From the NCBI GenBank assembly GCA_938049125.1, contig CALICR010000154.1:1-33135 (forward strand): a stretch of 33,135 nucleotides of DNA, in the 5' to 3' direction. Of the stretch, positions 3,383-29,299 are shown in pieces. This DNA is from an uncultured Clostridia bacterium (GTDB lineage Bacteria; Bacillota; Clostridia; Oscillospirales; Oscillospiraceae). A program made the translations under genes and the position numbers. Under the pieces are notes generated by a model. It had not been told where the DNA came from. It did no database searches and saw nothing but the letters and a program-made list of their open reading frames with translations. Each line of letters begins with the position of its first letter. Position 1 is the stretch's first letter.

Positions 3383-3850
3383 ATGGGCATCAACGTCGAT
3401 TTTGAAAGCATCAAGGGTATGGCGGCCAATGTGGCCACCACGGCAAAGAAGAAGGCCTCCACGCTGGCGGCCATCGCCAAGGCCAATGTCGCCATCTACG
3501 CGGAAGAGGACAAGGTGAAGAAGGCAGAGGCCGAGCTGGGCCGCCTGTACTACAACGATTTTGTGGCCGGCAACGGCGCGGACACCGAGGCCTATCTGCC
3601 CATCTGCGACCGGATCACCGAGTCCAAGAACACGATTCAGGAGCTGAAGGCGCAGGTCGCCAAGCTGAAGACCCAGTCCGCCTCCGAGCGCGAGAGCGCC
3701 GTCTACGACGTCACCGACGCCGACTTTGTCGTGTCCGGTGAGGACGACGTGGAGCCGGTCCGGGAGGACACTGCCCCCGAGGCCGCCGGTGCCGAGAGCT
3801 TCGCCGTCAAGCAGAACGGCGAGATCAAGGAAGCCACCAAGGAAGAATAA
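3383..3850 (+). CDS. Hypothetical small coiled-coil protein with an acidic C-terminal tail
   Basis: 155-aa ORF with a GGAAAGGAG RBS. It has its own promoter-like motif and a downstream hairpin. The sequence is K/A/E-rich and helical (AKANVAIYAEEDKVKKAEAELGRLYYNDF). I recognise no family. Confidence 0.75.
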   Translation: MGINVDFESIKGMAANVATTAKKKASTLAAIAKANVAIYAEEDKVKKAEAELGRLYYNDFVAGNGADTEAYLPICDRITESKNTIQELKAQVAKLKTQSASERESAVYDVTDADFVVSGEDDVEPVREDTAPEAAGAESFAVKQNGEIKEATKEE

Positions 3851-3861
3851 GCCGGGAATCC

Positions 3862-3904
3862 AGACCTGCCCGCCTGAGCCAGTCTCAGACGGGCAGTCTT
3901 TTTC
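3862..3904 (+). terminator. Probable rho-independent terminator
   Basis: CTGCCCG (3866-3872) pairs with CGGGCAG (3890-3896), with flanking AGA/TCT pairs and then a TTTTT run. The 17-nt loop is large, so confidence is moderate. Confidence 0.55.
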
Positions 3905-4023
3905 CCGGGCGGCCCCGGCGGAAAAGCGATGGACAAGCGCGCCCGCCTGTGGTAAACTTGGCTTAGACCCGGGCGCAGTACCGGCCCGGGATCAAATACC
4001 GGAGGGAACAGAAGGAGGTCAGG

Positions 4024-4971: not shown

Positions 4972-4986
4972 CAGGAGGCACAGAAT

Positions 4987-6820: not shown

Positions 6821-8899
6821 ATGGCAGATCAGAACGCCCCAAATCGTCGGACGCAGTGGGGGAATTGTGCGCTCATTGGGCTCTTTACTGCGGCAACGTT
6901 TTTTTTGTTCGGGCCGCTGAACCTCTATGTGAGCAATAAAAATGAGTTTTCTTTTTATCTTCGGGACATTTTGCCGTGGATCCTCGGGTGCTTTTTGCTT
7001 GCGGCTTTGGTCCTGACGGTTATCCCCGCCGCAATCCGGAATAAAAGGGCGCGGGATATCGTGCTTGCGGTGATTCTGGGGCTCGGCATCGGGTTTTATG
7101 TGCAGGGGAATTTTATGTCCGGCGGCTATGGGCAGCTGAACGGAAAGAGCATCGACTGGGACGCGATGACCGGACGCGGCATTGTCAACACGGTCGTGTG
7201 GGCGCTCTGCATTCTGCTGCCGGTCGCGGCGGTCCTGTTTGTGAAGGGATGGAAAACGGCGTTCCTGCGCGATGCCGCTCTGGCACTGACGGCGGTGCAG
7301 CTGCTGGCAACGGTGATCGCTTGTGTGGCGGCACCGGCCAAGCAGGACGTAGACTTCACCATCAATACCGACGGAGCCTTCACGCTGGCAGAGGAAAACA
7401 ATGTTGCCGTCTTCCTGACGGATACCTTTTATTCGGAGCTGTTCGAGGAGATCATCACAGAGGATCCCTCCTATTATGACGTTTTTTCCGGTTTTACGTT
7501 TTTCAAGGATACCTCCGGCGTCGGCTGCTCAACAAAGGGCACGTTGCCGTATATCCTGACGGGTGTCTGGAATGAGAATAAGATGCCGTTCCATGATTAC
7601 ATTGACCATGCCTATGATCACAATACACTGTATGAGACACTGCTGGATCGGCAGTATGACACGAGACTGTACGTGACAACCCGCTTTGTCAGCGCGAAGC
7701 ATACGCAGTATTTCGCCAACATTACCGGCGGCTCCGGACTTGCGGACCCGGCGGCGACAGCGGGCCTCATGTATAAATTTACGGCATTCACCTATATGCC
7801 GCATTTTCTGAAGCCGCAGTTCTGGTTCTATTCCGGTGATTTCTCCGCGGTTGACAGCGGAGAACGCGCGGATCATTCCCTGCGCCTCTCGCCGGACAGC
7901 GCTTTTTATTCCAGCCTGTGTGAGGCCGGGATCACGGTCGATCCGTCCTATGCGGGAACCTATCGCTTTTACTATCTGAACGGTCCCCACGCGCCCTACG
8001 TGATGGATGAGCACGCCCAGGCGGCAGAGGAGGGAACGGTGACACAGCGGCAGCAGGCGATCGGAACGCTTGAGATTCTCCGCACGTATCTGGAGCAGCT
8101 GCGCGAAACAGGGCTTTACGACAGTACGACGGTCATGATTCTGGCCGACCACGGCGCGGAGACAAAGAATTATATCAATCCGATGCTCTGCGTCAAGCCT
8201 GCGGGCGCGGCGGACGAACCGCTGAAGGTCTCCTCCGCGGAGATTGCGTTCTCGGACCTGCAGCCGACCCTGCTGAAGGCGATCACGGGCGACGAGTCCC
8301 TGACGAGCGTTTTTGATATCCCGGAGGGCGAAAGCCGGGAGAGAAGAGCGATTTGGTACGTGTGGAACCATGCCGCCTGGCAGGAGGATTACCTTCCGGA
8401 CCTGAGCGAGATCTTGATCACAGGAGACGTCCGCGACCTGTCCACCTGGCGCCCCACGGGGCATATGTATACTGCGAGCGGAGAAAAAGTGACGGATTAC
8501 AGCTATGAGTTGGGGACGGAGCTCTACTATAACGGTTCGCAGTTTGACGAAGAACACTATTTTATTGGCCTTTCCTATCCGGAGGAAAATTTCACCTGGA
8601 CCGATGGGGAATGGGTGAACTGGAATTTCCGCCCTGTGCAGTACGAAGGGGAAGACCTTGTATTCCGCGTAAATTACGTTGCCGCGCTGGATAATCAGAA
8701 GGCGATCCTGCATGTCAATGGATATGAACAGGAGCTGACGGTCGGGGATGGAGAGACGCTGGAGTATGTGATCCCGGAGGAATATATTTTGGACGGGACA
8801 CTCTCCCTGTTTTTACAGCTCCCCAATTACCGGCGCGGGGATGGGGATGCGAGAGATATCGCGGTGGCCATCCGTAGTATCTCGCTGAACGCGGAATAA
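6821..8899 (+). CDS. LtaS/sulfatase-type (alkaline-phosphatase superfamily) membrane phosphotransferase with an extra C-terminal domain
   Basis: 692 aa with an AAGGGGGA RBS. About five N-terminal TM helices are followed by an extracytoplasmic domain with NVAVFLTDTF, STKGTLPYILTG (candidate nucleophile Thr region) and MILADHGAE (the sulfatase-family DHG motif). The last ~150 aa contain GLSYPEENFTWTDGEWV, a pattern recurrent in envelope-glycan proteins. Confidence 0.8.
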   Translation: MADQNAPNRRTQWGNCALIGLFTAATFFLFGPLNLYVSNKNEFSFYLRDILPWILGCFLLAALVLTVIPAAIRNKRARDIVLAVILGLGIGFYVQGNFMSGGYGQLNGKSIDWDAMTGRGIVNTVVWALCILLPVAAVLFVKGWKTAFLRDAALALTAVQLLATVIACVAAPAKQDVDFTINTDGAFTLAEENNVAVFLTDTFYSELFEEIITEDPSYYDVFSGFTFFKDTSGVGCSTKGTLPYILTGVWNENKMPFHDYIDHAYDHNTLYETLLDRQYDTRLYVTTRFVSAKHTQYFANITGGSGLADPAATAGLMYKFTAFTYMPHFLKPQFWFYSGDFSAVDSGERADHSLRLSPDSAFYSSLCEAGITVDPSYAGTYRFYYLNGPHAPYVMDEHAQAAEEGTVTQRQQAIGTLEILRTYLEQLRETGLYDSTTVMILADHGAETKNYINPMLCVKPAGAADEPLKVSSAEIAFSDLQPTLLKAITGDESLTSVFDIPEGESRERRAIWYVWNHAAWQEDYLPDLSEILITGDVRDLSTWRPTGHMYTASGEKVTDYSYELGTELYYNGSQFDEEHYFIGLSYPEENFTWTDGEWVNWNFRPVQYEGEDLVFRVNYVAALDNQKAILHVNGYEQELTVGDGETLEYVIPEEYILDGTLSLFLQLPNYRRGDGDARDIAVAIRSISLNAE

Positions 8900-8939: not shown

Positions 8940-10820
8940 ATGAACAAACTCTTGGAACTTCTGGGCGTACCGCTTTGTGCGCTGATGACGGTTTGCTATG
9001 ATCTGGTACACAACTATGTGGTCGCCATTGTGATCTTCACGGCACTGACGAAGATCATTCTGCTGCCGGTCTCCATGTGGGTGCAGCGGAACGGCATTGC
9101 TATGGTGCGCATGATGCCGGAGCTGAACAGGCTGAAGATCAAGTATTTCGGCGATCAGGAGACGATCGCCGAACAGCAGCAGGCACTTTACAAAAAGGAG
9201 CACTACAGCCCACTGGTCAGTACGGTGCCGATGATCATTCAGATCGTCCTGCTGATGGGTGTCATCGGTGCGGTCAAGACGCTGCTTGGCAGTGCCGAGA
9301 GCACACTGAACCTCATTCCGATGCAGGCGGGCGGCGCAACGCTGCTGATGCCGCTGGGGGCAGGGCTTGCGGCGCTCTGCCTGACGCTGGCGCAGAACAA
9401 GATTGGCCCGCTGCAGCGTGAGCAGGTGAAGGCGGAGCAGATCATGACCGGTGCCGTTTCCGTGTGCATCTCGCTGTTCCTCGGCGCATTCGTGTCGCTG
9501 GGAACCGGCGTGTACTGGATCGCAAGCAATCTTTGGTCGATCCCGCTTCAGCTCCTGCTGAACATTCTCGTCAATCCGAAAAAGTACATCGACTATGAAG
9601 CGCTCGAAGCCAGCCGCAAGGAGCTGGCAACGATGACCAGCCTCGGCACCACGGTCTCCAAGGAGGACAAAAAACGCGAGAAGGCGGACTACAAGCGCTT
9701 TTTCTCTGTGGCGAACAAGCATCTTGTGTTCTATTCCGAAAAGAGCGGCTTCTATAAGTATTTCCAGAACGTCATCGAATATCTGCTTTCTCACTCGAAT
9801 GTCATCATTCACTATGTGACGAACGATCCGAACGACAAGATCTTTGAGCTGGCGAAGGAGCAGCCGCGCATCCGTCCCTATTATATCGGGCCGAAGAAGA
9901 TCATCACGCTGATGATGAAGATGGACGCGCAGATTGTCGTTATGACGACGCCGGATCTCGAGAATTACTACATCAAGCGCAGCTATGTCCGCAAGGACAC
10001 CGAGTACATCTACCTCTGCCATGGCGTGATGAGCACGACCATGTGCATGCGCAAGGGCGCCTATGACCACTTCGATACCGTCATGTGTGTCGGTCAGCAC
10101 CAGATCGACGAGATCCGGGAGACCGAGGCGATGTACCATTTGCCCGCCAAGAATCTCGTGCCCTGCGGCTACGGCATGCTCGACAATATGCTTGCTGCCT
10201 ATGAGAAGATGCCGGAGGAAGCGCACGCGCAGAAGCGTATCCTGATCGCGCCGTCATGGCAGGAGGGCAACATTCTGGAGAGCTGCATCGAGGAGCTGGT
10301 GCAGCAGCTCTACGGCGAGGGACACTTCGTGGTCGTCCGTCCGCACCCGGAATTCATCAAGCGGTTCCCCGGCAAGATGGAAGCCATTGCGGCGAAGTTC
10401 CAGAATCTTGATCCGAAGCTCTTCAGTCTGGAAACGGACTTCTCCTCCAACGTGACAATCTACACGGCGGACATCGTCATCACCGACTGGTCCGGCATCG
10501 CGCAGGAGTTCGCGTTCACGACCAAGCGCCCCGTCCTGCTCATCAACACGCCGATGAAGGTGCTGAATCCTGAATATGTCAAATATGAGCACCAGCCGCT
10601 CGACATCACGCTCCGTCCGGAGCTTGGCAGGACGCTGGAGCTGGATGAAATTTCCAAGGCGGGCGCGGCGGTCGAGGAGCTGCTTGAAAACCGCGCCTAC
10701 TATGCGGAAAGACTGGATGAAATCACGCGCCGCTGTGTGTTCAATCTCGGCTCCAGCGGTGCTGCTGCGGGACGCTATATTCTGAAGAAGATCAGCAAGC
10801 CCGTGAAAACAACGAAATAA
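8940..10820 (+). CDS. Fusion protein: N-terminal YidC/Oxa1-like insertase domain plus C-terminal TagB/TagF-type CDP-glycerol glycerophosphotransferase domain
   Basis: 626 aa in one uninterrupted ORF. The N-terminal part (~aa 1-215) reads VAIVIFTALTKIILLPVSMWVQRNGIAMVRMMPELNRLKIKYFGDQE..QQALYKKEHYSPLVSTVPMIIQIVLLMG, matching the YidC TM1/coiled-coil/TM2 pattern. The C-terminal part (~aa 255-620) has ILIAPSWQ, VVVRPHPEF and ADIVITDWSGIAQEFAFTTKRPVLLIN, all typical of TagF-family enzymes. Confidence 0.8.
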   Translation: MNKLLELLGVPLCALMTVCYDLVHNYVVAIVIFTALTKIILLPVSMWVQRNGIAMVRMMPELNRLKIKYFGDQETIAEQQQALYKKEHYSPLVSTVPMIIQIVLLMGVIGAVKTLLGSAESTLNLIPMQAGGATLLMPLGAGLAALCLTLAQNKIGPLQREQVKAEQIMTGAVSVCISLFLGAFVSLGTGVYWIASNLWSIPLQLLLNILVNPKKYIDYEALEASRKELATMTSLGTTVSKEDKKREKADYKRFFSVANKHLVFYSEKSGFYKYFQNVIEYLLSHSNVIIHYVTNDPNDKIFELAKEQPRIRPYYIGPKKIITLMMKMDAQIVVMTTPDLENYYIKRSYVRKDTEYIYLCHGVMSTTMCMRKGAYDHFDTVMCVGQHQIDEIRETEAMYHLPAKNLVPCGYGMLDNMLAAYEKMPEEAHAQKRILIAPSWQEGNILESCIEELVQQLYGEGHFVVVRPHPEFIKRFPGKMEAIAAKFQNLDPKLFSLETDFSSNVTIYTADIVITDWSGIAQEFAFTTKRPVLLINTPMKVLNPEYVKYEHQPLDITLRPELGRTLELDEISKAGAAVEELLENRAYYAERLDEITRRCVFNLGSSGAAAGRYILKKISKPVKTTK

Positions 10821-10833
10821 AAGGAGAATCATC

Positions 10834-11091
10834 ATGAAAAAACTGCTCGGACGTCTTTATTTTGTGATCTGCTTTGTGCTGATCCTTTCTCTCAGCGCTT
10901 CTGCGTATCTGGACCCCTCCGTCATGACCTATGCGATCCAGATCATCGCCGGCATTGCCGTTGCGGTCGGCGCGGTGGTCGGTATTTACTGGCGCAAGGC
11001 GAAGAAAAAGGTGCAGGATAAGCTCGGCATCGACGAAAACAGCAAAAAGGAACAGGAAGAGGACGTCATCGAGATCAGAGAAGAGGACTGA
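10834..11091 (+). CDS. Small membrane protein, unknown function
   Basis: 85 aa with an AAAAGGAGAA RBS. It has a signal/TM segment, then AYLDPSVMTYAIQIIAGIAVAVGAVVGIYWRKAKKK (a second TM), and a K/E-rich tail. Confidence 0.7.
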   Translation: MKKLLGRLYFVICFVLILSLSASAYLDPSVMTYAIQIIAGIAVAVGAVVGIYWRKAKKKVQDKLGIDENSKKEQEEDVIEIREED

Positions 11092-11163: not shown

Positions 11164-12987
11164 ATGCAGGCAGTTATCCTGGCCGCCGGAATGGGAAAGC
11201 GGCTGAAAAGCCTGACCGCCAACAATACAAAGTGCATGGTGAAGGTCAACGGCGTGACGCTGATCGAGCGGATGCTGCGCCAGCTGGACCGGCTGAAGCT
11301 GCGGCGGATCGTCATCGTCGTGGGGTATCAGGGACAGAAGCTCATCGACTTTATCTCGACGCTGGACGTAGAGACGCCCATCGAGTACATCGACAATCCC
11401 ATCTACGATAAGACGAACAACATCTATTCCCTGGCACTGGCCCGCGGCGTGCTGGTGGAGGACGACACGCTCCTGCTGGAGTCCGACCTCATCTTTGCGG
11501 ATGGTACGCTGGAGGCCCTGGTCTCCGACCCGTATCCGACGCTGGCACTCGTGGACCGCTACGAGAGCTGGATGGACGGCACCGTTGTCACGCTGAACGA
11601 GGACAATTCCATCCGGAAGTTCATCCCCGGCAAGCAGTTCCGCTTCGAGGATATCCCCGGCTATTATAAAACGGTCAACATCTATAAGTTCAGCAGGCGT
11701 TTTTCGAAGGACATCTATGTGCCCTTCCTGACTGCCTATTCCTCCGCGCTGGGTGACAACGAGTACTACGAGCAGGTGCTCCGCGTGATCGCCATGCTGG
11801 ACCATCCGGAGATCCGCGCCAAGTGCATGGACGGGCGCGTCTGGTACGAGATCGACGATATTCAGGACCTCGACATTGCAGAGTCCATGTTTGCGCCGCC
11901 GGAGGAGAAGGTCAAGAAGCTCGGCAGCCGCTACGGCGGCTACTGGCGCTATCCCAAGCTGCTCGATTTCTGTTATCTTGTCAATCCCTATTTCCCGCCC
12001 AAGCGGCTGATGGACGAGATCAAGGCGAACTTTGAGACGCTGCTCACCCAGTATCCCTCCGGGATGCGCGTCAACTCGCTGCTGGCGGCGAAGGATTTCG
12101 GCGTGAAGCAGGAGCACATTCTCGTCGGCAACGGCGCGGCGGAGCTGATCAAGGCGCTGATGGAGGGCGAGACCGGCAAGGTCGGTTTTGTTCGCCCGAC
12201 ATTTGAGGAATATTATAACCGCTGCGACCCCGCGCAGCGCGTGGTCTATCAGCCCGAGGGATTCACCTACACGGCGGATGACCTCATGCGGGAGTTTTCC
12301 GGAAAGGGAATCTCGACGCTGCTGTTCATCAATCCGGACAACCCCTCCGGCAGCTACCTGCTGAAGGCGGAGGTCTGCCGCCTTGCGGACTGGGCGGAGA
12401 CAGAGGGCATCCGGCTGGTGCTGGATGAATCCTTTGCCGACTTCTCGGACGAGCTGGACAATACGCTGATCCTCGATGAGATGCTGGAGCGCTATCCGCA
12501 CCTCGTGGTGGTCAAGAGCATCTCAAAGTCCTACGGCGTGCCCGGTCTGCGCCTCGGCGTGTTGGCATCCGCGGATGAGGCGATGATCGCCGCCATGAAG
12601 AAGAATGTGGCGATCTGGAACATCAATGCCTTCGCGGAATTCTACCTCCAGATCGAGGAGAAATATAAAAAGGATTATGCGCTGGCACTGGAGAAGTTCC
12701 GTGCGGCGCGTGCGGAGTACGTCGCCGCGCTGCGGGACATTCCCGGTCTGCGGGTCCTGCCGTCGCAGGCAAACTATGTCATGGCCGAGCTGACCGGCGG
12801 CATCACCGCAGCGGAGCTGACGGCGCGGCTCCTGAGCGAATACAACATCCTCATCAAGGATCTCACGGCAAAGGTACAGGGTGGGCAGTATATCCGCCTT
12901 GCCGTCCGGGACGAGAAGGACAATGCGAGACTGGTGCAGGCGCTGCGCGCGGTCTGCGGCGGAGCTTTGGAGGGAAAGAATCCATGA
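11164..12987 (+). CDS. Bifunctional LicC-type (CTP:phospho-X) cytidylyltransferase / CobD-HisC-type class I/II PLP enzyme (FrbH-like architecture)
   Basis: 607 aa with a GGAGGAAG RBS. The N-terminal ~245 aa read MQAVILAAGMGKRLKSLT..KCMV, NNIYSL and VWYEIDDIQDLDIAE, which aligns with pneumococcal LicC motifs. The C-terminal ~360 aa have VGNGAAELI, FINPDNPSGSYL, LVLDESFADF, the PLP-lysine motif SISKSYGVPGLRLGVL, and WNINAFAE. Confidence 0.8.
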   Translation: MQAVILAAGMGKRLKSLTANNTKCMVKVNGVTLIERMLRQLDRLKLRRIVIVVGYQGQKLIDFISTLDVETPIEYIDNPIYDKTNNIYSLALARGVLVEDDTLLLESDLIFADGTLEALVSDPYPTLALVDRYESWMDGTVVTLNEDNSIRKFIPGKQFRFEDIPGYYKTVNIYKFSRRFSKDIYVPFLTAYSSALGDNEYYEQVLRVIAMLDHPEIRAKCMDGRVWYEIDDIQDLDIAESMFAPPEEKVKKLGSRYGGYWRYPKLLDFCYLVNPYFPPKRLMDEIKANFETLLTQYPSGMRVNSLLAAKDFGVKQEHILVGNGAAELIKALMEGETGKVGFVRPTFEEYYNRCDPAQRVVYQPEGFTYTADDLMREFSGKGISTLLFINPDNPSGSYLLKAEVCRLADWAETEGIRLVLDESFADFSDELDNTLILDEMLERYPHLVVVKSISKSYGVPGLRLGVLASADEAMIAAMKKNVAIWNINAFAEFYLQIEEKYKKDYALALEKFRAARAEYVAALRDIPGLRVLPSQANYVMAELTGGITAAELTARLLSEYNILIKDLTAKVQGGQYIRLAVRDEKDNARLVQALRAVCGGALEGKNP

Positions 12988-13928
12988 AAATCGTATCCTT
13001 CGACCAGATCACGAGGCTGAATATTTCGCCGTACACCTGCTATGAGTGGGTCAGCGAGGGCATCCGGCGGAAGCACGAAGCACTGCTGCCGGCAAAAATC
13101 AGCCTCAAGCCGGATATTCCGGGCGTGTTTTACAATACGATGCCGTCGATCCTGCCCTTTGCGGGCTATGCCGGCGTCAAGCTGGTGACGCGCTATCCGG
13201 AGCGCGCGCCGAGCCTCGACAGTGAGATCCTGCTCTATGATCTCGAGAGCGGCAAAAATCTGGCGCTGCTCGACGGAAACTGGATCACGACCATGCGAAC
13301 CGGCGCCGTTGCGGCACATTCGGTCAGGCTCCTGGCAAAGCAGGATTTCTCGACCATCGGTATGATCGGGCTCGGCAACACGGCACGCGCGGCATTCCTT
13401 GTGCTGCTGTCTCTCTATCCGGAGCGGCAGTTCACGGTGAAGCTGAAGCGCTACAAGGATCAGCATGAGCTGTTTGCAGCACGCTTTGCAGCGTATGCCA
13501 ATGTGAAGTTTGTCTACTGTGACAGCTATGAGGAGCTTGTGCGTGGCAGCGAGGTCGTGCTTTCTGCCGTCACAATGTTTGAGGATGACATCTGTCCCGA
13601 TGACTGCTTTGAGGAGGGCGTCCTGCTGGTGCCGATCCACACGCGCGGCTTTACCAACTGCGACCTGTTCTTTGACAAGGTGTTTGCCGATGATGTGAAC
13701 CATGTCAAGGGCTTCAAGAATTTCGGCAAATTCCGCAGCTTTGCGGAGGTGTCGGACGTTGTAAACGGCAAGGTGCCCGGACGCACGGACGATCGCGAGC
13801 GCATCCTCGCCTACAACATCGGAATTTCCCTGCACGACATCTATTTTGCAGGCAAAATCTATGAGCTGCTGGCAGCGCACTGCCCGGAGGCAGACCTGCG
13901 CGCACCGACGGAAAAATTCTGGATCTGA
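12984..13928 (+). CDS. Ornithine cyclodeaminase / mu-crystallin family NAD(P)-dependent enzyme
   Basis: 314 aa. Its ATG overlaps the upstream stop (ATGA at 12984-12987), and GGAGGGA lies upstream. It carries LLDGNWITTMRTGAVAAHSVRLLA and the Rossmann motif IGMIGLGNTARA, both typical of the OCD family. Confidence 0.8.
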   Translation: MKIVSFDQITRLNISPYTCYEWVSEGIRRKHEALLPAKISLKPDIPGVFYNTMPSILPFAGYAGVKLVTRYPERAPSLDSEILLYDLESGKNLALLDGNWITTMRTGAVAAHSVRLLAKQDFSTIGMIGLGNTARAAFLVLLSLYPERQFTVKLKRYKDQHELFAARFAAYANVKFVYCDSYEELVRGSEVVLSAVTMFEDDICPDDCFEEGVLLVPIHTRGFTNCDLFFDKVFADDVNHVKGFKNFGKFRSFAEVSDVVNGKVPGRTDDRERILAYNIGISLHDIYFAGKIYELLAAHCPEADLRAPTEKFWI

Positions 13929-13959
13929 GTGCCCGGCAGCCGTTTGGAGGAGTACTTCC

Positions 13960-14751
13960 ATGATACGCGGCTATCTCAATACCGTTAAAAAATACCGGTT
14001 TCTCTTGAATCAGCTTGTAGCGCGGGACTTTAAGACGCGCTACAAGCGGAGCATCCTCGGCGTGCTCTGGAGCATGCTGAACCCGCTTCTGACCATGTGC
14101 GTTCAGTATCTGGTCTTTGTCAACATCTTCCGGTGGCAGATCGACAACTACGCGGTCTACCTCCTGATCGGTACGGTGAGCTTCAACTTTTTCTCGGAGT
14201 CGACCCAGGCGGCGCTATCCTCCGTCACGGGCAGCGCCTCGCTCATCACCAAGGTCTATATCCCGACCTATGTGTTCCCGGTGGCGAAGGTGCTCTCCTC
14301 GTGCATCAACCTGTTTTTCTCGACGCTGGCGCTCTATCTCATCATCTTCATTCAGGGCGTACCGCTCAACTGGTGCCATCTGCTGATCCCGGTGCTCTAT
14401 CTGGCGCTGATCGGCTTCAGCATGGGCGTCGGCATGATCCTTGCGGCGGTCATGGTCTATTTCCGGGATACCCAGTTCCTCTACGGCGTGCTGATCGTGC
14501 TGTGGATGTACCTGACGCCGCTGTTTTATCCCGTCAGCATCATTTCGGACAGCGCCTCGCCCCTCGTCTGGGGTCTCTATCAGTGCAACCCGATGTACCA
14601 GTATGTGACGTTCTTCCGCACGCTGGTGCTGGACGCTGCAGTGCCGACGGCGGCGCAGTTCGCCTGGTGCTTCGGCTATGCGGCGCTCTTCCTGCTCATC
14701 GGCTTCCTGGTGTTCAGGAAGCTCAAGAAGAACTTTATCCTGTATATCTGA
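13960..14751 (+). CDS. ABC-2 type polysaccharide/teichoic-acid export permease (TagG/Wzm-like)
   Basis: ATG at 13960 with GGAGG 9 nt upstream. The tracked start at 13846 lies inside the upstream gene. Its N-terminus is family-typical: YRFLLNQLVARDFKTRYKRSILGVLWSMLNPLL. It has six predicted TM helices. Confidence 0.88.
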   Translation: MIRGYLNTVKKYRFLLNQLVARDFKTRYKRSILGVLWSMLNPLLTMCVQYLVFVNIFRWQIDNYAVYLLIGTVSFNFFSESTQAALSSVTGSASLITKVYIPTYVFPVAKVLSSCINLFFSTLALYLIIFIQGVPLNWCHLLIPVLYLALIGFSMGVGMILAAVMVYFRDTQFLYGVLIVLWMYLTPLFYPVSIISDSASPLVWGLYQCNPMYQYVTFFRTLVLDAAVPTAAQFAWCFGYAALFLLIGFLVFRKLKKNFILYI

Positions 14752-14760
14752 GGTAGCGCT

Positions 14761-15867
14761 ATGGCAGACGCAATGATCGACATCCGCGAAGCGACGATGG
14801 ATTTCCACCTCGAACATGAGAATATCAACAGCTTCAAGGAGTTTTTTGTCAACCTTCTGAAGGGAAAAATTCATTATGACCATTTCCGCGCGGTAGACCA
14901 TGTCAATCTGCAGGTGAAGCCCGGCGAGGTCTGCGGCATCATCGGCAGAAACGGCGCGGGCAAGAGCACCCTGCTCAAGATGATCGCCGGCGTGCTGACG
15001 CCGACGGGCGGCTCAATTAAAATTCACGGCAACATCGCGCCGATGCTGGAGCTTGGCGCGGGCTTTGACCAGGATCTGACGGCGCGGGAGAATATCTTCC
15101 TGAACGGTGCGATCCTCGGCTACAGCAAGGAATTTCTGGAGAAAAAATTCGACCATATCGTAGAATTCGCGGAGCTGAAGGACTTTATCGACCAGCCGGT
15201 GCGGACGTTCTCCTCCGGCATGATGATGCGACTCGCATTTTCCATCGCCACGCAGGTGGACCCTGAAATTCTGATCGTTGACGAGATCCTCTCCGTGGGC
15301 GACAGCCACTTCCGCCAGAAGAGCGAGGGGCGGATGCGCGAAATGATGAGCGGCGGCACCACAGTGCTGATGGTCTCCCATGTGCTCGCGCAGATCCGCA
15401 GCATGTGCAACCATGTCATCTGGCTCGACCATGGCAAGGTCATCATGGACGGCGATGCCAAGACGGTCTGCGACGCCTACGAGGGCCTTATCGACTTCGA
15501 CAACGCGCCGAAGTTCGAGATCGGCCGCACCATGGACGACATTCAGCGCATCACCATGTACCCGGACAACTGGCTGCCGCCGCAGGGCTCGTACAAAATC
15601 AAAACCGGTCCGATGGGGCTGGTTTCCGGCGTGCTGCTCTGCCCGTTTCAGGATCTGACCGGGAAGGAAAAGGTAAAAATCTCACTCGACTGCAACGGCG
15701 ATGAAGAGCCGGTCTCCATCGCGATCACCGAGGAGCACACAAGTTTTGAGCTTCAGGGAAAACCAAACACCGTCGTTACCGTCTATATAGATAGCAACTT
15801 TTCCCGCTCACCGGGCAACGACCAGCGCGCGCTTTCGGTCGTTCTGGAGGATACGGACGGGAATTAA
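14761..15867 (+). CDS. Polysaccharide/teichoic-acid export ABC ATPase (TagH/Wzt-like) with a ~120-aa C-terminal extension
   Basis: 368 aa. It has Walker A GRNGAGKST, signature SSGMMMRLAFS, Walker B ILIVDE and the H-loop VSH. Residues ~250-368 are a non-ABC, beta-rich domain. Confidence 0.88.
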   Translation: MADAMIDIREATMDFHLEHENINSFKEFFVNLLKGKIHYDHFRAVDHVNLQVKPGEVCGIIGRNGAGKSTLLKMIAGVLTPTGGSIKIHGNIAPMLELGAGFDQDLTARENIFLNGAILGYSKEFLEKKFDHIVEFAELKDFIDQPVRTFSSGMMMRLAFSIATQVDPEILIVDEILSVGDSHFRQKSEGRMREMMSGGTTVLMVSHVLAQIRSMCNHVIWLDHGKVIMDGDAKTVCDAYEGLIDFDNAPKFEIGRTMDDIQRITMYPDNWLPPQGSYKIKTGPMGLVSGVLLCPFQDLTGKEKVKISLDCNGDEEPVSIAITEEHTSFELQGKPNTVVTVYIDSNFSRSPGNDQRALSVVLEDTDGN

Positions 15868-15888
15868 ATCAAATTGGGAGTATCAGAT

Positions 15889-18800
15889 ATGGAGTTTCAG
15901 AGAGAACACCCCCCGCTGATCAGTGTTGTGATGCCGCTTTTTAACACAGCGCAATTTCTGCCTGCCGCGCTGGAAAGCGTTCTGAACCAGACCTATCAGA
16001 ATTTGCAGGTCATCGTGGTGGACGACTGCTCTACGGACGGCAGCGCGGAGATCCTCGCGTCCTATGACGACCCGCGGCTGGAGATTTTCCGCATGGAAGA
16101 AAACAGCCATGTCTGCGCGGCCCGGAACGAAGGATTCCGCCATGTGCGCGGTGACTATGTTGCGACCATTGACAGCGATGATGTTTGGCTGCCCGAAAAA
16201 CTGGAAATGCAGCTGTCCTGGATGGAGATACATCCGGACTGCGGCGTCTGTTTTACCTGGAGCGATATGATCGATGAGAACGGCGCGCTGGCCAATCACG
16301 AGAATGCATGGTTCTATGAGATGTTTCGCCAGCCGAACCGGACGCAGCGGGAGTGGCTGCTGCATCTGCTGGAGCATGGAAACTGCCTGAATAACTCCTC
16401 ACCGTTGATGCGCCGCGCGGTATTGGACCAGGTGGGCGGCTACAACCTGACGCTTGTTCAGCTTCAGGATTTTGAGTATTGGATCCGCGTCGTTTCAAAG
16501 TTCCCAATCAGCGTTCTCCCGGCGAAGCTGGTGCAGTACCGCCGCGTGCGGGAGAATAACCGTTCGGTCAGTGCAAATAATGTGACCAATAAGCTCCGCA
16601 GCGAGAACGAGGAGATCTTTGTCTGCTCTCACTTCTTTGATTGGATCTCGGATGAGCTATTCTGCGAGCTGTTCCGTTCAGATTTTCATGATTCGAACGC
16701 TTCTGCGGCGGCAGAGCTGCAATGTGAACGGGTATTCCTGCTCCGACGTGCCTACTGTGCGCCGGAACCGTATCTTTCGAGGATGCAGATGCTTCTGTGT
16801 GAGCCGGAGACAACGGCGGTCCTGCGGGAAAACTATCACTATAGGCCGAAGGACTTTTATGGAGAGAATCGCGTTAAGCGCTATTTTGGCCGAGGTCTGC
16901 AGCTTCGCCAGCGCGAAGAAATCGAGATTGAGAAAGCGACCCTGTGCTTTGCGCTCCCGGATGGCGCGTCGGAGACCATCGAATTTGAAAAAGACCCCTA
17001 CGTCTACGAACGGGCGGGGGACCGACTCATATGTGACGCAAAGATTCCGGCTGGGGCGGTCGCTGTGACATTCCGGCCGATACAGTGCGGAAGCTGTATC
17101 CTCAGCGAACTGCATATCTGTGCCGATCGAGAGTCGCTTCTGGCGGAAGAGTTTACGTGCACCAGGATCGGGGACCACTGGGTCTATGAGGCGGGAAAAG
17201 ATACGATTTTTTATCCGCTGCCTGCGCAGGCAGAACGACTGACGGTCTCTATGCGGCGCACTCTGATTCGCGCAGAAAACGAGTTTCTGCTGGGTGCGGG
17301 GGAGCACGCTTTTCCGACGGAGCTTCAGGTATGCATGAAGCAAGCCAGGCAAACCCAGGAGGAGATGACGGAGCGGCACCGTGCGCGCCTCCGCACCATG
17401 GCCCAGGAGCAGCGGGAGCAGCGCCGCCGCATGAATGAGGCGCATCAGCAGGAGCTTGCACAGCTCCGGCAGGAGAAGGCGAACGTGGAAGGCGAGTGCC
17501 GCCAGCTCCGCGATACGGAAAACCGGCTCCTGAACGATCTTGATGCCATTCATCACAGCCGGTCGTGGCGCATTGCGCAGTTTTTCTCGAGAATTCTGCG
17601 CTTTTTCATCCCGATCGGAAGCAAGCGGGCACTGTTTTGCCGGATTTTGTGGATGCTTATCCGCCATCCCGTGATCTTCTTCCGGAACCTGACTCCGCGG
17701 AAGATCAAAAAAGCGCTCCGTATGATGCGTCGCGGCGACACAGAGGGCGTCCGCCTGCTGATGCGCGGCAAGGTGACGGGAGAACCTGCGCCATCCTCCA
17801 TTGTGACTGCGGTGCCGGAGCTGGCAGCCGTGGACATGCGGGAAAAGACGATTGATGATTATCAGCCGCTCACCGTTCCGCAGTGGGACGATCCGACGGT
17901 GTCCATCGTCGTCCCGGTCTACAACCAGTTCGAATTCACCTATCACTGCGTGGAGTCTATTCTGAAGCACAGCGGCGACGTGACCTATGAGATCCTCATC
18001 GCCAACGACTGCTCCACGGACCTCACCACGGAGATCGACAAAATCCTGCCCGGTGTCCGCTGCATCACGAACGAGCAGAACCTGCGCTTCCTGCGCAACT
18101 GCAACCGCGCGGCGGGCTTCGCCAAGGGCAAGTATATCCTCTTCCTCAACAACGATACCCAGGTACAGCCGGACTGGCTCCGGCCGCTGGTGACGCTCAT
18201 CGAGAGCGCGCCGGACGTGGGACTCGTCGGCTCCAAGCTGATCTACCCGGACGGCAAGCTGCAGGAGGCGGGCGGCATCCTCTGGCGCGACGGCTCTGCG
18301 TGGAATTTCGGAAACCGCCAGAATCCGGCGCTGCCGCAGTTCAACTATGTCAAGCAGGTGGACTACATTTCCGGCGCCGCCATTATGCTCTCCCGCAAGC
18401 TCTGGGAGGAGATCGGCGGCTTTGACGAGACCTTCGCCCCCGCCTACTGCGAAGACAGCGACCTCTGCTTTACGGTCCGGAAGCTGGGCTACCGCGTGCT
18501 CTATCAGCCGCTTTCCGTGGTCGTCCACTTTGAGGGCGTCTCCAACGGCACGGATACCTCCTCCGGACAGAAGAAATACCAGATCGAAAACTCAAAAAAA
18601 TTCCGCGAGAAGTGGGCAGAAGAGCTTGCAAAACACCCGGAAAACGGCGAAAATGTGTTTCAGGCACGGGATTATTCCTATGGAAAAAAGACGCTGCTCA
18701 TGGTGGATCACTATGTGCCGCAGTTCGACAGGGACGCGGGCAGCCGCACGGTCTTCCAGTATCTCAAGCTCTTTGTTTCGCAGGGCTTCAACGTCAAGTT

Positions 18801-19788
18801 CATCGGCGACAACTTTTATCAGCACGAGCCGTATACCACGGTGCTTCAGCAGCTGGGCATTGAGGTGCTCTACGGCCCCGAGTGCGCGGCACACTGGAAG
18901 GACTGGATCATCGACAATGCGGAGCACTTCGACTATGTGTTCCTGAACCGTCCCCACATTGCGCCGAAATACCTTGATTTCCTGCGGCTGTACACGCACG
19001 CCCGCATCATGTACTACGGCCACGACCTCGCCTTCCTGCGTGAGATGCGCGAATATGAGGTCACCGGCGACGCCTCCTTCCGTGACTCCGCCAAAGAGTG
19101 GATGCCCAAGGAGCTGGCGCTGATGCGCGAGGCGGACATGGCGTATTACCCCTCCTATGTGGAGGTGGATGAGATCCACAAGCTTGACCCGGATATCCGT
19201 GTCAAGGCGATTCCGGCCTACCTCTTTGAGAACGTCGAATGGGAGGGCTACGACTTCGCGGCGCGGAAGGACATCATGTTCATCGGCGGCTTCGGACACC
19301 GTCCCAATGTGGACGCGGTCAAGTGGCTGGCGGAGGACATCCTGCCCGCCCTGCGGAAGCTGCTGCCCGGCGTCAAGATCCATGTCCTCGGCTCCAACCC
19401 GCCGAAGGAGGTGCAGGCGCTGGCATCCAGTGACCTTATCATCGAGGGCTTTGTGACCGACGAGCAGCTTGATGCCTTCTACCGCGAGAGCCGGATTTCT
19501 CTGGTTCCGCTGCGCTACGGCGCGGGCATCAAGGGCAAGGTCATTGAGGCGATGCGCAATGGCACGCCGGTCGTGACCACGCCGACGGGTGCCGAGGGCA
19601 TCAAGGACGCCGAGTCGGTCATGGCAGTGGAGGAGACGGCGGAGGCGCTGGCAAAGCGCATTGCGGGGCTCTACAACGATGAAGCAGCGCTCACCGAGCT
19701 GAGCCGGAGGAGCGTGGAGTATGTGAAGAAGAATTATTCGCCCGCCAATGCAATTCAGGTCATCGGACCGGAATTTGATCTCACTTAA
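15889..19788 (+). CDS. Multidomain glycosyltransferase: GT2, unknown region, coiled coil plus amphipathic segment, GT2, GT4/GT1-like
   Basis: The ATG at 15889 has GGGAG 8 nt upstream, and I prefer it over the tracked TTG at 15874, giving 1299 aa.
- First GT2 domain: ISVVMPLFNTAQFL..VIVVDDCSTDGS..IDSDDVW.
- Heptad-like charged stretch: nt ~17355-17555 (QEEMTERHRARLRTMAQEQREQRRRMNEAHQQELAQLRQEKANVEGE), then SRSWRIAQFFSRI.
- Second GT2 domain: from ~17897 (VSIVVPVYNQ..ANDCSTD..LNNDT..EDSDLC).
- C-terminal GT4-like part: GGFGHRPNVDAV..EGFV..GAGIKGKVIEAMRNGTPVVTT. Confidence 0.85.
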   Translation: MEFQREHPPLISVVMPLFNTAQFLPAALESVLNQTYQNLQVIVVDDCSTDGSAEILASYDDPRLEIFRMEENSHVCAARNEGFRHVRGDYVATIDSDDVWLPEKLEMQLSWMEIHPDCGVCFTWSDMIDENGALANHENAWFYEMFRQPNRTQREWLLHLLEHGNCLNNSSPLMRRAVLDQVGGYNLTLVQLQDFEYWIRVVSKFPISVLPAKLVQYRRVRENNRSVSANNVTNKLRSENEEIFVCSHFFDWISDELFCELFRSDFHDSNASAAAELQCERVFLLRRAYCAPEPYLSRMQMLLCEPETTAVLRENYHYRPKDFYGENRVKRYFGRGLQLRQREEIEIEKATLCFALPDGASETIEFEKDPYVYERAGDRLICDAKIPAGAVAVTFRPIQCGSCILSELHICADRESLLAEEFTCTRIGDHWVYEAGKDTIFYPLPAQAERLTVSMRRTLIRAENEFLLGAGEHAFPTELQVCMKQARQTQEEMTERHRARLRTMAQEQREQRRRMNEAHQQELAQLRQEKANVEGECRQLRDTENRLLNDLDAIHHSRSWRIAQFFSRILRFFIPIGSKRALFCRILWMLIRHPVIFFRNLTPRKIKKALRMMRRGDTEGVRLLMRGKVTGEPAPSSIVTAVPELAAVDMREKTIDDYQPLTVPQWDDPTVSIVVPVYNQFEFTYHCVESILKHSGDVTYEILIANDCSTDLTTEIDKILPGVRCITNEQNLRFLRNCNRAAGFAKGKYILFLNNDTQVQPDWLRPLVTLIESAPDVGLVGSKLIYPDGKLQEAGGILWRDGSAWNFGNRQNPALPQFNYVKQVDYISGAAIMLSRKLWEEIGGFDETFAPAYCEDSDLCFTVRKLGYRVLYQPLSVVVHFEGVSNGTDTSSGQKKYQIENSKKFREKWAEELAKHPENGENVFQARDYSYGKKTLLMVDHYVPQFDRDAGSRTVFQYLKLFVSQGFNVKFIGDNFYQHEPYTTVLQQLGIEVLYGPECAAHWKDWIIDNAEHFDYVFLNRPHIAPKYLDFLRLYTHARIMYYGHDLAFLREMREYEVTGDASFRDSAKEWMPKELALMREADMAYYPSYVEVDEIHKLDPDIRVKAIPAYLFENVEWEGYDFAARKDIMFIGGFGHRPNVDAVKWLAEDILPALRKLLPGVKIHVLGSNPPKEVQALASSDLIIEGFVTDEQLDAFYRESRISLVPLRYGAGIKGKVIEAMRNGTPVVTTPTGAEGIKDAESVMAVEETAEALAKRIAGLYNDEAALTELSRRSVEYVKKNYSPANAIQVIGPEFDLT

Positions 19789-22791: not shown

Positions 22792-22844
22792 CGGTCCGGC
22801 GGGGAGCGGACAAACGGTTTTGTGAGGGATGGAATGTGACAAGA

Positions 22845-29233: not shown

Positions 29234-29299
29234 TTAATTCTGTTCTGCGCCTCTGCGGCGTTTGAGATAGCAAAGAAAATGGAGAAATGGAGGAAAACC

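Follow-up and report, generated by a model that had tools for sequence, protein, structure and literature searches.

A YidC-like domain fused to a TagF-like transferase belongs to a three-gene module that may decorate the cell envelope with phospho-head-groups

We found that the window (the whole stretch of 33,135 nucleotides that was analysed) encodes a real, widespread and undescribed bacterial protein, in which a YidC/Oxa1-like membrane domain and a TagF-like phosphotransferase share one chain. This fusion belongs to a three-gene module whose other two products are a membrane hairpin of 85 aa and an LtaS/EptA-like ectoenzyme with 5 TM helices. The two partner genes (6821-8899 and 10834-11091) went unnoticed in the first-pass annotation and are the key to interpreting the fusion. 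From what is observed, namely architecture, conservation, gene linkage and gene fusions, we infer a series of biochemical steps in which the fusion would be the component working between cytoplasm and membrane in a machine of three parts, adding phospho-head-groups to the envelope, a reading to which we give slightly less than even credence. With more doubt than that, we propose that the YidC/Oxa1 fold may have been recruited here as a lipid-head-group translocase: the fusion would make a phospho-X lipid (by a Kennedy-type reaction, e.g. from CDP-X and diacylglycerol), flip it, and feed it to the hairpin-tethered ectoenzyme. This could be the missing route for wall phosphocholine, phosphonates (AEP/HEP) and amino-alcohol phosphates in many gut Clostridia and Coriobacteriia.

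The fusion protein and its two domains

The fusion ORF (8940..10820, + strand) has an ATG start and a single uninterrupted frame of 626 aa, which by ORF and Pfam analysis comprises a YidC-like membrane domain, a basic helical linker and a TagF-like GT-B domain. Both domains scored above their Pfam gathering cut-offs: 60KD_IMP (PF02096) matched aa 26-208 with 91.3 bits versus a cut-off of 35 (E 8.7e-26, profile positions 1-162 of 163), and Glyphos_transf (PF04464) matched aa 256-534 with 35.3 bits versus 22.1 (E 8.2e-09), the scores of relatives for the latter profile being 36-52 bits. The in-frame fusion claimed in the first-pass annotation, between a complete five-TM core of YidC type and a TagF-like domain, is thus genuine, and the four motifs quoted there are all present in the translation (ILIAPSWQ at aa 433-440, VVRPHPEF at 465-472, DWSGIAQEF at 516-524 and RPVLLIN at 530-536). 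The AF2 model of the 626-aa protein reached a pLDDT of 87.8 and a pTM of 0.72, and was also confident in the linker region.

The same ORF, identical in sequence and set in the same gene order, was found on at least 8 contigs of independent assemblies. Homologues of the fusion numbered 7788; almost every one of the 120 listed is full length, and almost every one is recorded with the two Pfam domains. At least 587 GTDB species representatives encode the fusion, and its architecture is conserved at 46-74% identity. Carriers by name include Lachnospira eligens, Anaerotruncus, Gordonibacter and Raoultibacter, which we take to be gut anaerobes. The fusion also occurs in Angelakisella massiliensis. 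That two neighbouring genes were merged through mis-assembly, a sequencing error or a lost stop codon in one contig only is a negligible prospect, given the independently assembled identical copies, the conservation across species and the confident linker; the chimeric join or hidden frameshift that had been a concern is ruled out on the first two of these grounds. The ~310-aa N-terminal extension of 940-aa variants of the fusion gave no match in a Pfam search. In the databases, these proteins are named only "YidC/Oxa1 family insertase". A full-text literature search combining YidC with TagF-type, teichoic or phosphonate themes returned no description of the architecture, and the phosphonate literature searched, including PMC6697681, does not mention the fusion.

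The YidC/Oxa1-like core (aa 26-208; 9015..9563, + strand) consists of TM1, the C1 helical hairpin and TM2-TM5, and is preceded by an EH1-like helix (aa 2-23). The helices of the AF2 model (26-40; 42-68 with 73-86; 91-116; 132-155; 164-184; 187-210) follow the pattern of a five-TM core whose TM1 and TM2 are separated by a coiled-coil hairpin on the cytoplasmic side, and YidC chains in the PDB match the domain with E values from 5.5e-16 to 5.9e-14. The NCBIfam YidC equivalog models all scored far under their cut-offs against the fusion, and TIGR03592 (yidC_oxa1_cterm) gave 73.3 bits, below its cut-off of 84.3. The cytoplasmic location claimed at first pass for the TagF-like part follows from YidC topology.

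By alignment, K38, Q101, N197 and Q204 of the fusion are equivalent to R366, Q429, N521 and Q528 of E. coli YidC, and T34, Y192/W193 and Q204 match E. coli groove positions (the mapped sites include T362, Y516/Y517 and Q528). K38 (ALTKIILLPV; codon 9051..9053, + strand) provides the groove positive charge, confirming the earlier remark that a Lys replaces the conserved groove Arg. Of 75 family members, 72 have K in this column and 3 have R; across 80 loci the position is K in 72 and R in 1, with 7 unmatched by the search pattern, and in a 77-sequence alignment it is K or R wherever covered. Throughout Clostridia and Coriobacteriia, K/R38, Q101 and N197 are invariant. A stand-alone YidC with the usual Arg (LLIRLLLTPL) lies 1.3 kb from the fusion in a related locus (L005), sharing ~30% identity with it over 67 aa. 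Cytoplasmic loop C2 of the YidC-like domain carries a family-specific motif, P157-L-Q-x-E-Q162 (9408..9425, + strand), which is invariant in 75/75 sequences where E. coli YidC has P-T-T-V-T-D; we propose that it faces the TagF-like domain.

As read from these alignments, the YidC-like groove is under selection. A role as a mere anchor, for which K/R38, Q101 and N197 would not be needed, is disfavoured because, across phyla, the family retains the polar residues that line the groove in true YidC, suggesting that the groove was selected for more than anchoring. The first-pass annotation had pictured the groove either as an anchor for the polymerase or as a site serving a lipid-linked molecule rather than proteins; the first half of this idea has thus lost ground, while the second is compatible with our data and is sharpened by the partnership with an LtaS-like enzyme.

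The TagF-like GT-B phosphotransferase domain (aa 256-626; 9705..10817, + strand) was identified by PF04464 and Foldseek. The top Foldseek match in the PDB was 8qoy, the Actinobacillus pleuropneumoniae serotype 3 capsule synthesis multienzyme (E 4.4e-10), and 8va1 (TarL) ranked third (E 4.2e-8), with generic GT-B enzymes close behind. As a single sequence, the TagF half had no match in the PDB up to E 10, and an 11-sequence profile of it reached TarL at E 0.002, in the C-terminal half only. In the alignment of the family profile with TarL, APSW pairs with APTF, RPHP with KMHP, and DWSG..EYAF..RP with DYSS..EYAV..KP, the fusion-side motifs being invariant in the family. H361 (10020..10022, + strand), a His following a beta-strand (EYIYLCHG) and invariant in 75/75 sequences, is a candidate catalytic base; its region lies outside the HMMER alignment to TarL, which starts at TarL residue 345. 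In the TagF family the catalytic His is TarL H300, the residue mutated in PDB 8va1, or TagF H444. The columns most associated with head-group class are positions 362 and 364, flanking H361, yet class is nearly the same as clade and phylogeny confounds the association, so that a specificity-determining role for them is only suggestive.

Partner genes and genomic neighbourhood

The first partner (692 aa; 6821..8899, + strand) has 5 TM helices, an alkaline-phosphatase-superfamily (AP, LtaS/EptA-like) ectodomain and a C-terminal beta-sandwich. Its AF2 model (pLDDT 82) places five helices across aa 9-170, followed by an alpha/beta domain, and its top Foldseek matches are PbgA/YejM, MCR-1 and LtaS. 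The partner profile matches the LtaS ectodomain 2w5q (E 5e-6), and the score against Pfam Sulfatase, 23.2, is just under the cut-off of 25. Five residues are invariant (D201, T238, H390, D443 and H444). D443-H444 and H390 align with motifs of Staphylococcus aureus LtaS; T238 falls outside that alignment evidence and is a candidate counterpart of the nucleophile Thr of LtaS, T300.

This partner was found in 53 of the 80 loci, always on the strand of the fusion, and phosphonate-type loci have a second, divergent AP-superfamily partner (hhalign probability 89.8%, E 1.8e-6). Of the 33 loci flanked on each side by 8 kb or more, 26 have a partner; in the other 7, a search with both partner profiles (hmmsearch --max) found no AP-type partner within 10 kb, and it may be located elsewhere in the genome or be dispensable.

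The second partner is the 85-aa membrane hairpin (10834..11091, + strand). In its alignment the first segment, H1, varies and ends in AxA; next come the turn YIDPSVxTY, which is invariant, a TM helix with many small residues and a charged tail, basic and then acidic. It occurs in 64/80 loci, and directly downstream of the fusion in 47/78. The order of the three genes varies between loci, but the strand is always shared. The 150 best representative hits include many proteins of ~560-840 aa in which the hairpin module is N-terminal; all six of the ~660-840-aa proteins scanned matched Pfam Sulfatase, five of them strongly, and a 563-aa one had no match to that profile. P0148 (386 aa), initially a candidate relative of the hairpin, is a histidine-kinase-type protein and was set aside as unrelated TM similarity or a gene-call fusion. 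The most complete arrangement is P0272 (1326 aa), a single chain that bears all four parts; their order is consistent with the topology, and the hairpin lies between the TagF-like and LtaS-like parts. Triple fusions of this type were found as three distinct sequences in three assemblies.

Genes for head-group activation are neighbours of the module. In the window, a 607-aa protein (11164..12987, + strand) is, by Pfam and NCBIfam, a nucleotidyltransferase fused to a CobD-like PLP decarboxylase: its N-terminal half matches LicC 1jyk and 6pd1, and its PLP half matches 6oux ("threonine phosphate decarboxylase-like enzyme", E 1.6e-47). Full-length homologues adjoin the fusion in ~10 other loci. The variable neighbours of the fusion include Ppm fused to a cytidylyltransferase, Ppd, Fe-ADH, LicA/LicC-like proteins and an NTP-transferase fused to a PLP decarboxylase. 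Neither a LicD-type transferase nor a dedicated flippase was found among the recurrent neighbours sampled, nor was a stand-alone TagD-like gene seen next to the fusion. A ~440-aa single-TM protein encoded upstream of the fusion in four phosphonate-type loci had no Pfam match and no similarity to the partner profile. The stretch 13846..19788 (+ strand) holds, by Pfam, what is probably the machinery for the acceptor polymer: an ABC-2 permease (13846-14751), an ABC ATPase (14761-15867) and a GT2-GT2-GT1 protein of 1304 aa (15874-19788), all on the + strand. These genes are context and are not conserved with the fusion across loci. The setting is that of cell-envelope glycopolymer synthesis rather than general protein biogenesis, in agreement with the first reading of the sequence.

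The same neighbours bear on the donor. A CDP-glycerol glycerophosphotransferase or polymerase, as initially annotated, is unsupported: because the adjoining genes make activated phosphonate, phosphocholine or amino-alcohol phosphate head groups, CDP-glycerol is an improbable donor and polymerisation an improbable activity. There is no free hydroxyl on choline, AEP or amino-alcohol phosphates from which a chain could be extended, which makes a single transfer of phospho-X likelier than polymerisation. The TagF-like domain is probably a single-transfer enzyme.

A possible head-group relay and its alternatives

The mechanism that we favour would proceed in three steps. In the first, the TagF-like domain would take a CDP- or CMP-activated head group made by the neighbouring genes (probably a CDP-amino-alcohol in the window, CDP-choline or a CMP-phosphonate elsewhere) and make a single transfer of phospho-X, the acceptor being the hydroxyl of a membrane lipid that sits where the groove opens to the cytoplasm; our preferred guess for this lipid is diacylglycerol, which would make the reaction Kennedy-type. 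In the second, the hydrophilic groove with its invariant Lys/Arg would pass the polar head group to the outer leaflet, a step suggested by the scrambling of glycerophospholipids by E. coli YidC in vitro and by Bacillus subtilis MisCB in simulations (PMC11047089). In the third, if it follows the chemistry of its family, the LtaS/EptA-like ectoenzyme would load phospho-X from the lipid onto its catalytic Thr and then pass it to a wall polysaccharide or teichoic-acid-like polymer built by the other genes of the cluster. The 85-aa hairpin would tether the ectoenzyme to the groove domain, and may sit where the substrate helix of YidC would.

In favour of this relay we counted that both domains are real and intact, the selection on the YidC groove, the three-gene linkage, the Rosetta-stone fusions, the activation-pathway neighbours, the scrambling by YidC and MisCB (PMC11047089), the existence of known lipid-donor ectoenzymes, and the class-associated columns at H361. 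Against it we counted the phylogenetic confounding of the 362/364 co-variation, along with points that lend weight to other explanations.

One such explanation, unlikely in our view, is that phospho-X is attached by the TagF-like domain, on the cytoplasmic side, straight to a glycan precursor linked to undecaprenyl, in the manner of LicD in pneumococci, and that ABC/Wzx export of the decorated polymer follows. The YidC-like domain would then only anchor the enzyme, thin the membrane and organise the complex, and the LtaS-like enzyme would catalyse a separate reaction at the outer face. Three of the points counted against the relay are in line with this scenario. TagF-family enzymes are known to act at the inner face on lipid-linked polymers, and to our knowledge those that have been characterised use lipid-linked glycans or polymers, not bare lipids; the window holds an ABC-2 permease and ATPase together with a giant glycosyltransferase, so that decoration could precede export, inside the cell; and 7/33 well-flanked loci have no AP-type partner nearby (within 10 kb). 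What the scenario leaves unexplained is the invariance of the polar groove and its charge, as well as the co-conservation of a cytoplasmic and an extracytoplasmic phosphotransferase and their fusion into one chain.

We find it improbable that the YidC-like domain still works as an insertase or holdase for the procoat-like 85-aa hairpin and, through the hairpin, for the 5-TM ectoenzyme, so that the complex is assembled with no exchange of substrate via the groove. The hairpin is indeed shaped like the classic YidC substrates, H1 being followed by a short acidic turn in which an Asp is invariant, then by a TM helix and a basic tail; some of its homologues lack H1 and are hence Pf3 coat-like. The groove residues of true YidC and the C1 hairpin are also retained, and this role fits groove conservation as well as the relay does, which we again counted against the latter. 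Yet a stand-alone YidC that could do the job is encoded 1.3 kb away in at least one relative; a permanent fusion to an enzyme is stoichiometric, not catalytic; in the triple fusion the supposed substrate is part of the same chain; and the link to head-group activation genes is given no reason.

Still less credible is a synthase-dependent export in which the TagF-like domain polymerises a polyol-phosphate or hydroxyalkyl-phosphonate and the YidC-like groove extrudes the growing chain. The best structural matches are TagF-like polymerases (8qoy and 8va1), and the free hydroxyl of 2-hydroxyethylphosphonate, a compound to which Fe-ADH points in some loci, would allow polymerisation in principle. 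Most loci, however, encode donors lacking an extendable hydroxyl (choline, AEP, amino-alcohol phosphates), the YidC groove is closed at its outer side in known structures, and the ectoenzyme would be left without a role.

If the relay is true, it would be the first Oxa1/YidC fold committed to non-protein cargo; we know of no earlier case of one devoted to such cargo. The in-vitro scramblase activity of insertases (PMC11047089) would then gain a physiological, selectable function. The route of CMP-activated phosphonates to the cell surface has been called enigmatic (PMC6697681), and the module is a concrete candidate for this step because Ppm/PntC-type genes adjoin it in many genomes. The descriptions of thousands of database entries under the name "YidC/Oxa1 family membrane protein insertase" are probably wrong. 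Phosphocholine and phosphonates at the cell surface serve as ligands by which the innate immune system and antibodies of the host recognise bacteria, and the natural triple fusion P0272 offers a ready-made single-chain object for cryo-EM and biochemistry.

Comparison with known systems

With YidC, SpoIIIJ and Oxa1 the fusion has in common the five-TM core, the C1 helical hairpin, a groove with a TM1 positive charge and Gln/Asn, and the N-out C-in topology. It differs in having Lys rather than the canonical Arg as groove charge, an invariant PLQxEQ in loop C2, and a 370-aa enzyme in place of the C-terminal tail; the 626-aa form has neither a lipoprotein signal nor the TM1/P1 domain, and the gene resides in glycopolymer clusters, not with housekeeping biogenesis genes. 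With TagF, TarL, TagB and the 8qoy-type polymerases it shares the GT-B fold, the AP[ST][WF], xHP and D[YW]S...E motifs and a cytoplasmic domain at the membrane; its invariant His after a beta-strand may be a further common feature. The sequence kinship is very distant, though (E 0.002 to TarL by family profile); TagF-type enzymes use amphipathic helices instead of a YidC-like integral anchor, and the neighbours of the fusion imply donors other than CDP-glycerol or CDP-ribitol. The LicD phosphocholine transferases probably use the same donors (CDP-choline) and likewise decorate the surface, but their fold is unrelated and they work alone, at the inner face. For LicD-like proteins, CMP-AEP has been suggested as a donor (PMC6697681).

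The first partner resembles LtaS, GacH, EptA (MCR-1), OpgB and BcsG in its five TM helices and its AP-superfamily ectodomain, and its conserved Thr, Asp and His residues are candidates for the corresponding metal-site positions. These known enzymes work at the outer face, where lipids serve as their phospho-alcohol donors, namely bulk phospholipids (PG or PE). The partner, in contrast, has an extra C-terminal beta-sandwich and is tied, sometimes fused, to a dedicated cytoplasmic CDP-X transferase, which implies a private supply of donor.

MprF, a lysyl-phosphatidylglycerol synthase and flippase for its own product, offers a functional analogy only: as proposed for the fusion, a cytoplasmic head-group transferase is fused to a membrane domain that moves the lipid outward. 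The folds are unrelated, the donor of MprF is an aminoacyl-tRNA, and its lipid product is an end point and not the donor for a third enzyme. Closer in layout are GtrA/GtrB/GtrX, CsbB/GtcA/YfhO and ArnC/ArnEF/ArnT, tightly linked sets in which a lipid carrier is loaded by a transferase at the inner face and moved across by a small membrane protein, after which an outer-face enzyme decorates a polymer. Those systems carry sugar, whereas the module would carry phospho-X; their inner enzyme is a GT2 rather than a GT-B TagF-like protein, their translocator a GtrA or SMR-type protein rather than the proposed YidC fold with hairpin, and their outer enzyme a GT-C rather than an alkaline-phosphatase fold. 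By analogy, the layout of our module matches that of these three-component lipid-carrier systems, with a linkage that is observed in synteny and in gene fusions, and a hand-over of substrate that would follow the same path from the inner to the outer face.

The YidC-TagF fusion and its two halves

Translation confirmed a single uninterrupted 626-aa ORF with an ATG start at 8940-10820 (+). In Pfam, its first part matches 60KD_IMP (aa 26-208, profile positions 1-162 of 163, 91.3 bits against a gathering score of 35) and its second Glyphos_transf (aa 256-534, 35.3 bits against 22.1); NCBIfam YidC matches were all sub-threshold (TIGR03592: 73.3 against a cut-off of 84.3). The four motifs cited in the first-pass annotation are all found in the translation, and alignment pairs K38, the lysine it had reported in place of the groove arginine of Gram-positive YidC, with E. 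coli R366. A 75-member family profile matches the solved YidC of E. coli, B. halodurans and T. maritima (E 5e-16 to 1e-10). With ORF, domains, motifs, profile matches and K38 in agreement, that description was accurate. A chimera or assembly artefact was rejected: the exact 626-aa protein, with unchanged gene order, occurs on at least 8 independently assembled contigs from different assemblers.

A homology search with the fusion yielded 7788 proteins; of the best 120, almost all span 618-644 aa and nearly all have both Pfam domains recorded, at identities down to 56%. Scanning one genome per GTDB species, we found the fusion in at least 587 species, mostly Oscillospiraceae, Lachnospiraceae, Christensenellaceae and other Clostridia, together with Coriobacteriia (Eggerthellaceae, Gordonibacter, Raoultibacter, Ellagibacter, Atopobiaceae) and a few MAGs labelled Lentisphaerae, Planctomycetia or Bacteroidales. 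Its name at NCBI is 'YidC/Oxa1 family membrane protein insertase'. The component families of the module are already known, and full-text literature searches, phosphonate-biosynthesis papers included, found neither the architecture nor the module described.

AlphaFold2 gave a confident model (pLDDT 87.8, pTM 0.72), which runs from an N-terminal amphipathic helix through TM1, a two-helix cytoplasmic hairpin, TM2-TM5 and three linker helices, which bear a conserved basic segment (KREKADYKRFF), to a two-Rossmann GT-B domain. Alongside K38, conserved polar residues align one-to-one with E. coli YidC groove positions: T34 with T362, Q101 with Q429, Y192/W193 with Y516/Y517, N197 with N521 and Q204 with Q528. 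Position 38 is K in 72/75 family sequences and R in 3/75; in a 77-sequence alignment covering both phyla, position 38 (K/R), Q101 and N197 are invariant wherever covered, and Q204 is replaced by L or M in some clades. Cytoplasmic loop C2 carries an invariant PLQxEQ motif specific to the fusion family. With YidC topology, the TagF-like domain would be cytoplasmic, on the side where nucleotide-activated donors occur. The 626-aa form lacks a signal peptide, lipobox and P1 domain. Variants of ~940 aa (P0032, P0054, P0078) carry, ahead of the core, one more N-terminal TM helix plus a repeat domain of ~300 aa, resembling the TM1 + P1 layout of E. coli YidC; the repeat domain has no Pfam match and, should the core retain YidC topology, would be extracytoplasmic.

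A Christensenellaceae MAG (L005) also encodes a stand-alone YidC (335 aa, canonical Arg, 60KD_IMP 151.5 bits) at L005:7675-8682 (-), 1.3 kb upstream of its fusion, to which it shows only ~30% identity over 67 aa. This protein has a ~130-150-aa insertion inside its 60KD_IMP match (aa 19-317 span the 163-position profile).

Judged by sequence, kinship of the second half to TagF is remote: its single sequence found no match in PDB, and a profile built from 11 sequences picks up TarL at E 0.002, pairing APSW with APTF, RPHP with KMHP and DWSG..EY with DYSS..EY. Foldseek against PDB placed TagF-like polymerases first (8qoy, the A. pleuropneumoniae serotype 3 capsule synthesis multienzyme) and third (8va1, S. 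aureus TarL), followed by generic GT-B enzymes. Invariant in 75 sequences are H361, S365, D379, E391, E396, A437-P-S439, N444, R467-P-H-P470, D516-W-S518 and E523. Like the catalytic His in TagF, H361 comes after a beta-strand, in a region that no significant residue-level alignment covers.

The operon and the probable head-group donors

The fusion is part of a same-strand (+) operon. Upstream of it lie a nucleotidyltransferase (4024-4971), a PGM/PMM (4987-6675) and a 692-aa membrane protein that matches Sulfatase weakly (6821-8899). Downstream follow an 85-aa membrane protein (10834-11091), a 607-aa nucleotidyltransferase + CobD-like PLP enzyme fusion (11164-12987), an OCD/mu-crystallin-family (ornithine cyclodeaminase) enzyme (12984-13928), an ABC-2 permease (13846-14751), an ABC ATPase (14761-15867), a GT2-GT2-GT1 protein of 1304 aa in a single polypeptide (15874-19788), a GHMP kinase (19810-20820), a nucleotidyltransferase-HAD phosphatase fusion (20817-22109), a SIS isomerase (22135-22791) and, at the operon end, a 776-aa PMT_2 protein (GT-C, ArnT/PMT-like; 22746-25076). 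The OCD gene, whose start overlaps the preceding stop, neighbours the fusion at just one further locus. The position of the GT2-GT2-GT1 gene directly after the permease and ATPase suggests ABC-transporter-dependent glycopolymer synthesis; the GHMP kinase, nucleotidyltransferase-HAD and SIS genes in a row resemble the nucleotide-activated glycero-manno-heptose pathway, suggesting a heptose-containing polymer. The PMT_2 ORF points to an additional outer-face glycosyltransferase of the polyprenyl-phosphate-sugar-using kind.

A large secreted-protein gene at 29279-33135 (+) runs off the contig end, with at least 1285 aa inside the window (signal peptide, acidic TEAAD repeats, Big_2 and GLUG domains). 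The 1294-aa minus-strand ORF at 29234-33118 is its antisense shadow, since its GC peaks at codon position 1, against position 3 in the confirmed genes of the window. Spurious long ORFs are typical of high-GC DNA. Two more, 212-2332 (+; 706 aa, overlapping the opposite-strand confirmed genes prmA and DUF4015) and 3703-6666 (-; 987 aa, overlapping the opposite-strand confirmed nucleotidyltransferase and PGM), are spurious, as they lack a Pfam match or show antisense-type codon-position GC.

Across loci, the variable neighbours of the fusion are head-group activation genes: a PEP mutase + cytidylyltransferase fusion (~15 loci), a phosphonopyruvate-decarboxylase-like TPP enzyme (13 loci), Fe-ADH or class-V aminotransferase, a LicA/LicC-like choline kinase + nucleotidyltransferase fusion (~10 loci), and the nucleotidyltransferase + PLP-decarboxylase fusion that the window also has. 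Full-length homologues of the window's 607-aa protein lie beside YidC-TagF in ~10 other loci, Lachnospira eligens included. Its N-terminal, LicC/MobA-like half resembles LicC (1jyk) and 6pd1; the closest PDB entry to its PLP half is 6oux, a 'threonine phosphate decarboxylase-like enzyme' (E 1.6e-47), which we take to be a serine-phosphate decarboxylase making ethanolamine phosphate. Its product is probably a CDP-amino-alcohol (CDP-ethanolamine or CDP-aminopropanol). In L005, a 689-aa ORF directly downstream of the YidC-TagF gene (L005:11859-13925, +) joins NTP_transf_3 nucleotidyltransferase, CTP_transf_like cytidylyltransferase and PEP mutase domains.

Choline, AEP (a phosphonate) and amino-alcohol phosphates offer no free hydroxyl for extension, which favours single transfer over polymerisation as the activity of the TagF-like domain. 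The activation genes and this donor chemistry thus go against the initial proposal of a CDP-glycerol polymerase: CDP-glycerol is probably not the donor. The association of alignment columns with head-group class is strongest at 364 and 362, flanking H361: phosphonate loci have H-Y-x-L, choline loci H-[H/G]-x-T and amino-alcohol loci H-G-x-D. It is only suggestive because class largely equals clade. The phosphonate steps after nucleotidyl activation have been called enigmatic (PMC6697681). No LicD-type transferase or dedicated flippase was found among the recurrent neighbours sampled.

Conserved partners and natural fusions

Only two window neighbours are conserved with the fusion across 80 related loci: the 85-aa protein (64/80; immediately downstream in 47/78) and the 692-aa protein (53/80), and when all ORFs of the neighbourhoods were clustered de novo, the same three clusters came out on top. 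Both are always on the fusion's strand in variable order: 692-aa protein, fusion, 85-aa protein in Clostridia; fusion, 85-aa protein, 692-aa protein in Coriobacteriia.

In the 692-aa protein, five N-terminal TM helices precede an alkaline-phosphatase-superfamily domain, and a beta-sandwich lies at the C-terminus. A profile of its family matches the LtaS extracellular domain (S. aureus, Listeria; E 5e-6), HxP and DH motifs included, Foldseek retrieved full-length PbgA/YejM, MCR-1 and LtaS, and D201, T238, H390, D443 and H444 are invariant. It is usually absent from phosphonate-type loci, in five of which a divergent enzyme of the same superfamily replaces it; hhalign relates the two with a probability of 89.8% (E 1.8e-6) and aligns their D, T, H and DH positions. 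Of the 33 loci whose flanks reach 8 kb or more on both sides, 26 have a partner of either type, and in 7 neither was found. Between the divergent enzyme and the fusion, four loci (L002, L009 and L028, phosphonate-type, and L016) encode a conserved ~440-aa single-TM protein (L009:8669-9931, L002:9022-9921, L028:8623-9948, L016:3080-4507) with no Pfam match and no similarity to the LtaS-like profile.

The 85-aa protein consists of a variable hydrophobic segment ending in AxA (absent in some homologues), a near-invariant Y-[IL]-D-P-S-V-x-T-Y, a small-residue-rich TM helix and a basic, then acidic tail. Exhaustive phmmer with this protein against 1.84 billion representatives gave 659 matches at E <=1e-3; among the best 150, many ~560-840-aa proteins bear this module N-terminally. 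Pfam Sulfatase is present in 6/6 scanned carriers of ~660-840 aa, five of them strongly, and was not found in a 563-aa carrier. A triple fusion, P0272 (1326 aa), unites 60KD_IMP (11-210), Glyphos_transf (357-600), the small module (~655-735) and Sulfatase (970-1269), with 49% identity to the window fusion over 627 aa and 28% to the 692-aa protein (E 2e-54); the 90% cluster to which it belongs comprises three distinct sequences of 1326 aa, drawn from three assemblies. The order of its parts is topologically consistent: from the TagF-like domain inside, the first hydrophobic segment (H1) crosses outward to the YIDPS turn, the TM helix returns to the inside, and five TM helices then lead to the ectodomain outside. 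By this order, the small module acts as a membrane hairpin linking the two enzymes.

A proposed head-group relay and its rivals

To our knowledge, all characterised LtaS/EptA-superfamily members transfer from lipid donors. The best-supported reading, we infer, is a relay in which the TagF-like domain would move phospho-X, the phospho-head-group, from CDP-/CMP-X to the hydroxyl of a membrane lipid (whose identity is a guess) where the groove opens to the cytoplasm; the YidC-like groove would let the head group cross the membrane; and the LtaS/EptA-like ectoenzyme would then hand phospho-X on to a polymer of the wall. In vitro, E. coli YidC has scramblase activity on glycerophospholipids, and in simulations B. 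subtilis MisCB scrambles them too (PMC11047089).

The relay jointly accounts for the conserved groove, the pairing of inner and outer phosphotransferases, their fusion in one chain and the link to activation genes. Against it count the seven partner-less loci, the ABC exporter in the window and the groove conservation, which fits an insertase role equally well. One rival is a scaffold or acceptor-presentation role, in which decoration would occur inside the cell; the others are a dedicated insertase or holdase for the procoat-like hairpin and a synthase-export role. The YidC fold may act here as a lipid-head-group translocase; if so, its superfamily would have gained a new function. Precedents for the logic of the module are found in MprF and in three-component Gtr-type systems.
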